Part shown: positions 4,496 to 26,586 of the stretch, in pieces
How positions within the stretch are numbered: position 1 is the stretch's first letter
Layout: each line of letters starts with the position of its first letter
Sequence record: PV357170.1
DNA: 42,358 nt
Direction: 5' to 3' (one strand)
Origin: a phage
Position numbers and translations under genes: made by a program
Notes under the pieces: model-generated
Told to the model about the DNA's origin: nothing
Database searches by the model: none
Seen by the model: the letters and a program-made list of their open reading frames with translations, nothing else

Positions 4496-4519
4496 TCCTA
4501 CTCCTGTAACATTAAATTT

Positions 4520-24458: not shown

Positions 24459-25100
24459 AAACTTGCCCCTTAGAGAATATAATCTAGCGCAGCCTCATTA
24501 CTACTGCGCTATGTTATACACTCTTTGCGGGATACACTCCGCGCCTTGTTCCCTCGATTCAGAGGAGCGTGCTGCTCACGCCTCGGCAGTAAGGTTTGCC
24601 TCAGAACCCCGGTGATAACGTCCGGCACGTTTACTCTTTATGACTGATTATCTAGGATTGGTCGTCATCGTACCAGTCAAGGTACTGGGCCTCCCCGCAA
24701 ACCAGCTTACTACGTTGTTCGCTATCTAAGTTACTAGGTGAATCTGAACTTGTCAAGCGTTATTTCTTACTTTTAAGCCGTCCGGTTTATGTGTCCGGTC
24801 ACCTGTAGCGGCTTGCTACGTGGAGGTGTCCTAGTTAGCGGCCTGTCTTCAACTATCCTGCCGTACTACTTGGATTCAATCTAGCTTATGTTCTTCGCGG
24901 TGTCAACTCTTTTATCGAGTATCTAACCCTTCACACCATCTAGCTTTAATCCGGTGGAGTCTCCCGACTCTACCCCGGTTAGCGCCTCAGTGCCTCCCGG
25001 TGATTGAACTATAACGCTAACAAACCAAAATAAGCAAGTACTTTTTGCAATTATTTATCTCTAAGAGCAAAAAGGGTAAGCAAGGCAATGGTTTAGTCAA
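24459..25100 (-). promoter_or_regulatory. probable early promoter / leader region (no individual promoter pinpointed)
   Basis: Non-coding DNA directly upstream of the first early genes; only weak -35/-10 candidates found by eye (e.g. TTGACA near 24751-24756 with a poor -10). Confidence 0.3.
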
Positions 25101-25110
25101 TGCTTCCATT

Positions 25111-25714
25111 CTAGGGATAGCTCTAGGGATAGCCCACTACTAGCCAATGCTAACCAATACAATCTAACGCTACACAAAGCAGAACGTAGTGCCCGTACGA
25201 AGTGAAAGGGCACGTAGTGATGCGGTGACTGTGTTGGTAATGCTTACTCCCTACGGTCGTAATATAGGGCATTACTAGGGGATACTAGTGAGTAGTAGTA
25301 AGTAGTATGTATCTAGTGCCCTAAAACCCTCCTACTCGTGTAACATCATTTCAAATTAGCTTTCGAATGAAAGTAAGGGTGAAGGGATAGCTCTAGGGAT
25401 AGCGACAGAGTCCGGCAGAGTGTAGCGGATAGTGGCGGGTAGTGGATGTGCGCCCTAGTGGGGAGCGCGCAGCGTAACATATAATCGGCGCAATGTAAAG
25501 CACTAGAGATAACCTTAGAGATAGCTCTAGAGATAGCATATAGACGCACTAGCAGCGCACTGGGCGGCCCACTACGGCCCACTAGGTGTGGCACTATGGC
25601 TGCACAAAATAAGCAAGGCAGAGCGCACCCCTATGGCCCACAGGGAGCGCACAGGAAGCGCCCTAGTGAACGCACAGGCATAGCCGTAGGGTAGCACTAG
25701 CGATAGCCCTAGCG
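25111..25714. repeat. array of short direct repeats: 11-bp motif CTAG(R)GATA(G/A)C in 8 or more copies, including a 21-bp unit present three times
   Basis: agggatagctctagggatagc at ~25113-25133 and ~25383-25403 (identical) and the G-to-A variant agagatagctctagagatagc at ~25517-25537; further copies at ~25503-25513 and ~25697-25707; tandem ggcccactac/ggcccactag at ~25566-25585. Confidence 0.75.
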
Positions 25715-25809
25715 CAGCGCAGAGAGCCGCTGAGAGCGCCATAGAGGCACTGGCAGGCCCCAGGCTGCCCGCGGCCATCTAGACGTCCAGACATCCAGCC
25801 ACCTAGATA

Positions 25810-25819
25810 CCCCCCCCCC
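25810..25819. repeat. C10 homopolymer tract
   Basis: Uninterrupted run of ten C in the non-coding region, about 230 bp from a G11 run on the same strand. Confidence 0.8.
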
Positions 25820-26026
25820 TAAATTCTCCCAGGACACCCCCTATGGGGGCAATTGGGCGCGTTGAGGGTGAGGGACCCTGTCGGGTAAGTATAACAAATT
25901 TCGAGTTCAGATATACACCTGCGCAGGGGGAGAAGTCCTTGTGATGTTCCAGGCGCTTCTCTTGTACCCACTTGCAGATAACTTCGTATATGCACCTGGA
26001 ATAGTACTTATAAATACTAACCTACA

Positions 26027-26063
26027 AAAGGAAAAGCCCCCAACTACAGGGGGGGGGGGCTTT
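26027..26063 (-). terminator. Rho-independent terminator ending the late transcription unit
   Basis: Minus-strand RNA: GCCCCC...GGGGGC GC hairpin (includes the C/G homopolymer) followed by UUUUCCUUUU, directly after the stop of the last late ORF. Confidence 0.5.
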
Positions 26064-26065
26064 GT

Positions 26066-26536
26066 TTAAAACAATAAGTATTCCACTGTAGATGGAAGTT
26101 GGACACCTACTGCTACAGGCCTGTTTACTGTAATTACGCCAGCAGCGCAGGAAGCAGTATCGTTTACAGTAGCTGGATTATCTACCCATGGGCGAACGCT
26201 ATACGACTTAGTTGTATCTGCATTAGGTATAGTTAATGTTCCTGAAGTGGCCCCACTAGCAACAGCAAGTGCACCTAAGTCTACATTACCGGCAGAGTGT
26301 ACTAATACTCCGGCAGGACTAAGGCTTACAACAGTAACCCCAGAACCAATATCAGCAGGTAATGAGTAAGCACGCTGTGTCACTTTGTCATAGATGACTT
26401 TGTAACCAGCAAGCAGAGCACCCACTGAGAAGTAAACAACCTCTGATTGCTTAACTCCGAAGTGTCGAGCCACTGCTTGTTTATTAGTTAAGATTCCCGT
26501 TGAACCTTTACCATCTTGTGAGAACATTTCGTTCAT
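26066..26536 (-). CDS. hypothetical late protein (156 aa), Gly/Ala/Val/Thr-rich, encoded after the tailspike
   Basis: GAGG RBS upstream of the ATG at 26536; bracketed by a hairpin upstream and a terminator downstream; beta-rich composition resembles fibre or receptor-binding accessory proteins. Confidence 0.5.
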   Translation of the reverse strand: MNEMFSQDGKGSTGILTNKQAVARHFGVKQSEVVYFSVGALLAGYKVIYDKVTQRAYSLPADIGSGVTVVSLSPAGVLVHSAGNVDLGALAVASGATSGTLTIPNADTTKSYSVRPWVDNPATVNDTASCAAGVITVNRPVAVGVQLPSTVEYLLF

Positions 26537-26562
26537 ATAAACCTCATTGTTTTTCTAGGAAA

Positions 26563-26578
26563 CCCCGCCGAAGCGGGG
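26563..26578 (-). other. GC hairpin with UUCG loop between tailspike and the following ORF
   Basis: ccccgc-cgaa-gcgggg inverted repeat; on the minus strand followed by only UUU, so more likely an RNA-processing or stability element than a full terminator. Confidence 0.45.
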
Positions 26579-26586
26579 CTTTGCTA

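Follow-up and report, generated by a model that had tools for sequence, protein, structure and literature searches.

The two long G/C homopolymers that lie close together near position 26,000 of the phage DNA analyzed here (PV357170.1; the whole stretch of 42,358 nucleotides is called the window) very probably belong to the concatemer-junction region of a KP34-like podophage, where they represent two independent, slippage-prone tracts. Both the tract region and the placement of the ends are ordinary and well explained, and nothing in them overturns current understanding. On the coding strand, the order of elements would be the end of the second tailspike gene at 26066, a terminator, the remnant of an HNH endonuclease gene, a block of 45 nt, the cut at 25873, and the terminal repeat, extending to 25621. 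Late transcripts would be stopped by the tailspike terminator before they reach the junction, and a T7-type terminase would cut the left end at 25873. The origins of the two tracts are unrelated. We infer that neither has to be of a precise length, and in practice they would lead to miscalled lengths and broken assemblies.

The window was assigned by megablast to the genus Drulisvirus (KP34-like podophages; Autographiviridae, Slopekvirinae). The nearest genomes are those of Escherichia phage Minorna (92%), AV102, IK_ECO1, and Klebsiella phage KPV811 (94% over 84% of the query); the best-matching Drulisviruses, at 92-94% identity, infect E. coli and Klebsiella. The coding strand is the minus strand, with GC skew negative almost throughout and the long ORFs found in this orientation. 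Drulisvirus genomes are linear and have short direct terminal repeats, and T7-type terminase genes, as expected for ends of this type, are present in the window: the large terminase at 30058-31914 (minus strand; PF22530 Terminase-T7_RNaseH-like, 1.3e-30) and the small terminase at 31914-32216 (minus strand; PF11123 DNA_Packaging_2, 2e-19). Endolysin and tailspike proteins are encoded as well. The terminal motif has a single match in the whole window and, since the ends fall within the window, the contig is permuted. To judge by its sequence, this contig is incomplete and holds the two copies of the terminal repeat collapsed into one. The contig is not closed at its extremities either: ~1,459 nt of AV102 are absent between its end (42316-42358) and its start (1-45), and with them tail tubular protein A and residues 1-281 of tail tubular protein B. 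One contig end sits on a homopolymer, the A13 at 1-13, which is the T13 tail (minus strand) of the hairpin terminator downstream of the capsid gene; AV102 has A17 at the place where the window starts with A13.

Only four homopolymers of six or more bases occur in the window: A13 (1-13), C10 (25810-25819, plus strand; G10 on the coding strand), G11 (26049-26059, plus strand; C11 on the coding strand), and A6 (26772). The C10 and G11 tracts, already noted on the same strand in a first-pass annotation of the region and recovered at the same positions by our sequence scan, are separated by 229 bases. An iid model predicts ~0.1 C/G runs of at least ten bases in the window, and a first-order Markov model ~0.06; the occurrence of two such runs within 250 bp is far beyond chance. 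Phase variation was considered and rejected. Neither tract lies within a supported ORF or a promoter spacer, where a contingency homopolymer would be placed: both are outside ORFs and predicted promoters, and the poly-C tract is found 6 nt after a stop codon. No sigma-70-like promoter was predicted within 300 nt of the poly-G tract, and the small ORFs that cross the repeat were without support.

We mapped the physical ends by homology to seven deposited genomes, namely six isolate genomes with identical repeat copies and fHe-Kpn01 (MN380459). In the six isolate genomes, the repeat copies measure 192-282 bp and are identical at both ends. The repeat spans 222 bp in fHe-Kpn01, 216 bp in KP34, and 268 bp in SAA231, whose record carries annotated left and right long terminal repeats. 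For fHe-Kpn01, blunt ends have been proven by PhageTerm, restriction analysis, marker-fragment ligation, and Sanger sequencing (PMC7291057). The start CCTCACCCT(G/C)A(A/G)CG... is common to SAA231, JKT6, KP34, and four more isolate genomes of IMG/VR. The CCTCACCCT at 25873 of the window aligns to nucleotide 1 of fHe-Kpn01, SAA231, JKT6, and the four IMG isolate genomes, and the KP34 record begins one base ahead of it. This homology places the predicted left physical end at 25873, beginning with CCTCACCCT on the minus strand, 53 nt from C10 and 175 nt from G11. T7, in which the near-terminal palindrome described below recurs equally far from the left end, provides an independent anchor for this placement.

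At the opposite boundary, the repeats of relatives (six genomes) stop with ...GGGCC(A/G)TA(G/T)(G/A)GGTGCGC(T/C)C(TG), followed by CCTTGCTTATTTTG; the sequence after the repeat reads (C/T)CTT(G/A)C(T/C)TATTTTG in the relatives, including fHe-Kpn01. In the window, the right repeat boundary reads ...GGGGTGCGCTC, then TGCCTTGCTTATTTTG. The junction at 25621, where ...GGGCCATAGGGGTGCGCTC is followed by TGCCTTGCTTATTTTG, is an exact match to the last repeat bases of KP34 and of IMG genome 2974501056 (a shared right-end 14-mer). The right repeat end of fHe-Kpn01 aligns at 25621 with few base differences, and the repeat of SAA231 is 2 nt longer. Just inside the right repeat boundary lies a conserved TGCCTTGCTTATTTTGTGC (25602..25620, minus strand), which marks the repeat end in all relatives with deposited ends. 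The direct terminal repeat is predicted to occupy 25621..25873 (minus strand, one copy), with a length of 253 bp for the KP34/fHe-Kpn01-type boundary at 25621, or of 255 bp if the SAA231-type boundary (25619) applies. Its interior is at most 85% identical to any deposited record. The first-pass annotation had the two tracts flanking the genome-end region and proposed the span between them as a candidate for the terminus. The left end does fall between the tracts. The second boundary, at ~25621, lies 169 nt beyond the marked span, and the tracts do not flank the region, with C10 located inside the terminal repeat (positions 55-64). The 119-bp direct repeats annotated in F19 (KF765493.2) were examined as an alternative end and discarded: with 15 differences between the copies and a G11 run at the end of the right-hand one, we regarded the annotation as unreliable. 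The ends of two reference records, F19 and SFN6B (KY684082), are apparently wrong, with homopolymers as the cause.

The best conserved part of the region consists of the 45 nt directly outside the left end (25874..25918, minus strand; GTGTATATCTGAACTCGAAATTTGTTATAC...) and the first 39 nt inside it, with mean column conservation of 0.87 and 0.94, respectively, across 36 distinct relatives. The 45-nt pre-terminal block is a candidate part of the cutting or packaging signal. It is overlapped by the last codons of the HNH endonuclease gene, which is intact in SAA231, BUCT86, and others; in the window, only a frameshifted and truncated 3' remnant is present (25907..25990, minus strand), recognized by comparison with SAA231 orf053, alignment, and annotated matches. 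The overlap may be the reason why this 3' piece is always kept. Inside the repeat, comparison with T7, T3, SP6, and phiKMV revealed a near-terminal palindrome, CCCCCATAGGGGG, at repeat positions 25-37 (25837..25849, minus strand). Its predicted fold is not significantly more stable than that of shuffled sequence (z = -0.5), nor is that of the terminator hairpin described below (z = -1.2), so both elements are argued for by their position and conservation and not by their energy.

A CCCC(C)ATAGG(G) element is found 25-30 nt from the left end in T7, T3, SP6, phiKMV, and the Drulisviruses, representing five Autographiviridae subfamilies. It is likely to be a family-wide part of end recognition, and no discussion of it was found in the literature searched. 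When IMG/VR was scanned with the 14-mer CCCCCATAGGGGGT, the matches listed were mostly unrelated contigs. The repeat and the early non-coding region (25300-25810) are also dense in short CTAG repeats (GCTATCyCTAGrG and similar), with 17 CTAG in kb 25001-26000 versus ~3 per kb elsewhere. The 14-nt core of the strong promoter of KP34 RNA polymerase (ATGTTACAGGAGTA) has minus-strand matches at 25333-25346, 4499-4512, and 36160-36173; the one with a single mismatch is found ~540 nt inside the left end, and the other two are exact (~0.4 matches expected by chance).

Upstream of the left end on the coding strand, the C11 tract (26049..26059, minus strand) accounts for the inner 5' arm and for most of the loop in the tailspike terminator, as indicated by its sequence, its fold, and comparison with the phages Moonfish and SFN6B. 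The intrinsic-terminator-like hairpin (26025..26063, minus strand) was identified both in the MFE structure and in a terminator scan, which flagged the site on the minus strand. In this orientation, it is composed of a 5' arm AAAGCCCCC (26063-26055), a 13-nt loop (26054-26042), a 3' arm GGGGGCTTT (26041-26033), and a T-rich tail TCCTTTTG extending to 26025; on the plus strand, part of the G-run finds its pairing partner in the GCCCCC at 26036-26041. ViennaRNA predicts a 9-bp stem, AAAGCCCCC/GGGGGCUUU, of -14.6 kcal/mol, with six G-C pairs and U's in and after the 3' arm. The hairpin sequence, AAAGCCCCCCCCCCCTGTAGTTGGGGGCTTTTCCTTTTG, begins 3 nt past the TAA stop at 26068-26066, and the site thus has the anatomy of an intrinsic terminator, with a G+C-rich hairpin and a U-run located 3' of a stop codon. 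An Rfam scan of 24800-26700 returned sub-threshold matches only, to the terminator-like ends of unrelated sRNA models, and no known RNA family. The earlier proposal that the G11 run and the upstream GCCCCC form the hairpin of a late terminator is supported by its position 3 nt past the stop of the last ORF, by the U-run that follows, and by homologues in Moonfish and SFN6B.

A short second tailspike-like gene of 156 aa (26066..26536, minus strand; Pfam Tailspike_C) is the final ORF ahead of the genome end. Its 3' part and the hairpin are 91-92% identical at the nucleotide level to the tailspike 3' ends of the Shigella phages SFN6B (Drulisvirus) and Moonfish (Schitoviridae). Both arms and the T-run are kept in these two phages, and only the length of the C-run differs. 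Moonfish has C5 only (AAAGCCCCCGTAGTTGGGGGCTTTTTT), in a compact form, AAAGCCCCCGTAGTTGGGGGCTTTTTTGTTG, of -17.4 kcal/mol, and SFN6B has C4-T-C11. Because the Moonfish homologue has C5, we read the C11 of the window as an expansion of a C5 arm, which would have grown by slippage and would move together with a horizontally exchanged tailspike 3' module. When the tract length was varied in silico, the hairpin energy was -16.7 kcal/mol with C5 versus -14.6 kcal/mol with C11, and was almost flat from C7 to C15, since the surplus C's go into the loop. The expansion would be tolerated because the extra C's are accommodated there, at a cost of only ~2 kcal/mol. The GenBank record of SFN6B ends and begins with the same 13 nt, CTCCCCCCCCCCC, which lie inside the tract; the record was evidently cut within the poly-C, and the real end would be found 187 nt into it. 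Among the 54 motif copies tabulated from IMG/VR and early GenBank loci, only SFN6B also has the upstream tract. In phiHAO78-1, a Drulisvirus of E. coli, a G14 run (L066 63-76) is found exactly where upstream sequence meets a truncated HNH remnant, ~160 nt before the left end. The E. coli/Shigella branch may thus have long G/C runs repeatedly at the border of the decayed HNH gene.

The description of the genus includes one conserved terminator, downstream of the capsid gene (PMC4411677), which in the window is located at 1-45, with its T13 tail. The tailspike hairpin is thus not the genus-wide terminator but a predicted one, specific to its module and placed where the late region ends. KP34 RNA polymerase is reported to stop in vitro at a hairpin-type (T7 class I) terminator (PMC6834552), and thus either polymerase could use the tailspike terminator site. 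Termination at this hairpin is suggested by its anatomy.

Two tailspike genes are found at 26066-28242 (minus strand), the first of 551 aa with Tail_spike_N and the second of 156 aa (MNEMFSQ...) with Tailspike_C. The two are not a single gene split by a homopolymer frameshift: a double stop, a hairpin (26563-26578), and a ribosome-binding site lie between them, and the second starts at a new ATG. The segment 26254-26579, which comprises the sequence upstream of the second gene and its first ~94 codons, is ~91% identical to tailspikes of G7C-like and Kuttervirus phages from E. coli, Salmonella, and Shigella. In its make-up, the second gene resembles a tailspike gene whose catalytic middle has been lost.

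The G10 tract (25810..25819, minus strand; repeat positions 55-64) is the homopolymer form of a G-rich block that occurs throughout the genus at a fixed offset, 15-17 nt after the palindrome in relatives. Two forms of this block are observed in relatives: a pure G-run after AATTTA or TAAATGA, or an interrupted sequence, ATAAAAGGAGGGGG(T/C)GGGG (e.g., GGAGGGGGTGGGG). A pure run is present at the same offset in 30 of the 51 untruncated copies, with lengths of G9 (one copy), G10 (six), G11 (10), G12 (three), G13 (four), G14 (one), G15 (two), and G19-23 (three, at visibly garbled contig ends). The other 21 copies lack a long pure run, and nearly all of them have the interrupted form; F19 has neither form here. 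Length differs between relatives (G13 in Minorna, G9 in phiHAO78-1) and also between copies, as in KP-Rio/2015, which has G13 in one copy of the repeat and G12 in the other; the tract is thus a variable homopolymer within an Autographiviridae terminal repeat. Three metagenomic contigs (L015, L016, L043) end within the G-run, and two more (L009, L011) run on as nonsense after 19-23 G's. The suspicion raised in the first-pass annotation, that such tracts would be length-variable or miscalled, agrees with the range of G9-G15 among relatives, with these broken or garbled contigs, with the unequal copies of KP-Rio/2015, and with the SFN6B record cut in its poly-C.

One T-to-G change is enough to convert GGGGGTGGGG to G10, and the pure form is seen on at least four different flank backgrounds. 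These two observations suggest repeated conversion to a pure G-run, followed by slippage. For the window, we propose that G10 arose by T-to-G conversion of GGGGGTGGGG and that its length then varied by replication slippage. G-richness at this fixed offset is kept genus-wide (column conservation 0.87), which hints at some constraint that purely neutral slippage would not explain. The literature searched, including the genus-defining paper, describes no role for the Drulisvirus G-run. A G-quadruplex-forming element was rejected: the motif (four runs of three or more G's, with loops of 1-7 nt) is present in 10 of the 36 distinct relatives and absent from the window.

It is also conceivable, though unlikely, that the G-rich block at repeat positions 55-64 acts in cis, as a functional element in the processing of concatemers or the duplication of the repeat, for example as a pause or a strand-separation barrier to polymerase or terminase, with an efficiency tuned by its length. 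In all 36 distinct relatives, the block keeps a fixed position with respect to the left end and to the palindrome. It is G-rich in its pure and interrupted forms alike and on at least four flank backgrounds, and the most variable part of the repeat begins there. However, its length ranges from 9 to 15, the interrupted form is interchangeable with the pure one, and F19 is without the block at this site. Moreover, T7, SP6, and phiKMV have no equivalent, the canonical G-quadruplex motif occurs in just 10 of the 36 relatives and not in the window, and no such role is described in the literature searched. We consider quite improbable the broader proposal that the block acts in concatemer cutting or repeat duplication, that the variable run modulates packaging, and that in the lineage of the window and SFN6B it might also pair with the upstream poly-C.

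An origin of one or both tracts as sequencing or assembly artefacts (e.g., poly-G read tails) would fit the garbled extensions after the run in L009 and L011, the contigs that end in the run, and the fact that the window, itself incomplete, begins on A13. Such an origin is very unlikely for the tracts as such, which have unique homologous sequence on both sides and recur in independent isolates, the G-run in SAA231, Minorna, KP-Rio/2015, and phiHAO78-1 and the C-run in SFN6B; only their exact length (about +/-1-2) is doubtful.

We give hardly any weight to a pairing of C11 with G10, in read-through RNA or single-stranded DNA, into a long-range stem that would bracket the left cut site and aid the processing of the junction. 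The tracts are complementary to each other and make up a perfect inverted repeat of 11 nt, its arms 227 nt apart, and they occur together in both the window and SFN6B; for T7, a hairpin end near the junction was reportedly proposed by Chung, Nardone and Hinkle in 1990, with hairpin intermediates. But beyond the window, SFN6B alone among the 54 motif copies tabulated has the upstream tract, and this segment is common to the two by descent, so they do not provide an independent co-occurrence. The upstream run of phiHAO78-1 consists of G and not of C, and would not pair, and in relatives with an intact HNH gene the last terminator is located at quite different distances. We therefore treat the complementarity over 11 nt as a coincidence, confined to a single lineage. 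Next to no credence is due to the idea that the tracts mark both boundaries of the terminal repeat: the span of ~230-250 bp is near the Drulisvirus repeat lengths of 192-282 bp, but the repeat ends of seven relatives align to 25873 and 25621/25619 instead, and 25874-26048 holds the HNH remnant and the pre-terminal block, which are outside the repeat in every relative.

With the region read as a concatemer junction carrying two independent tracts, the record can be re-oriented and the second copy of the repeat restored, taking the left end at 25873 and the 253-bp repeat to 25621. The positions to be trusted least are G10, C11, and A13, and assemblies of the genus tend to break there. The terminator would be exchanged with the tailspike module between unrelated phages of Shigella and E. 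coli, its arm growing by slippage at little cost. For studies of T7-type end recognition, mutagenesis could be aimed cheaply at two targets, the family-wide CCCCATAGG element located ~25 nt from the left end and the G-rich block at its fixed position.

The closest counterparts of the region are the repeats of other Drulisviruses (fHe-Kpn01, KP34, SAA231), which share with the window the CCTCACCCT left end, the palindrome at 25-37, the G-rich block at ~55, the right boundary ...GCGCTC followed by CCTTGCTTATTTTG, and the T7-type terminase genes. The window differs in having one collapsed copy and ends placed by homology, whereas those of fHe-Kpn01 were mapped experimentally. T7 (NC_001604) and the window both have a non-coding terminal repeat followed by short-repeat arrays and early host promoters. 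The left end reads TCTCAC... in T7 and CCTCAC... in the window, and CCCCCATAGGGGGT is found at nt 26-39 of T7 versus repeat positions 25-38 of the window. The palindrome CCCCCATAGGGGG lies at nt 26-38 of T7, and related CCCCATAGG elements, of the form CCCC(C)ATAGG or CCCCCGTAGG, occur at a distance of 25-30 nt from the left end in T3, SP6, and phiKMV. The T7 repeat, of 160 bp, has no G-run, and its short repeats are CCTAAAG, in contrast to the CTAG-containing units of the window, whose arrays nonetheless recall those of T7. No T7-type class II pause sequence (ATCTGTT) was identified at the repeat boundary of the window. In T3-like Yersinia phages, poly-C stretches of variable length have been described within the terminal repeats (Salem & Skurnik 2018, PMC5923468), the only precedent found in the literature searched; features of this kind are thus known in the family. 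As in the window, these are homopolymers within an Autographiviridae terminal repeat, with a length that differs among close relatives and no assigned function; however, the phages belong to another subfamily, and their tract lies on the opposite strand, with C, not G, in the top strand. In T3, C8 occupies nt 26-33, the position of the palindrome, whereas the tract of the window is at position 55. Finally, the terminators of Moonfish (PQ613263) and SFN6B share with that of the window the stem AAAGCCCCC/GGGGGCTTT, the loop core GTAGTT, and the T-run. The Moonfish terminator has C5, a loop of 4-6 nt, and -17.4 kcal/mol, compared with C11, a loop of 13 nt, and -14.6 kcal/mol in the window, and that of SFN6B differs from the window in having C4-T-C11 and G6.
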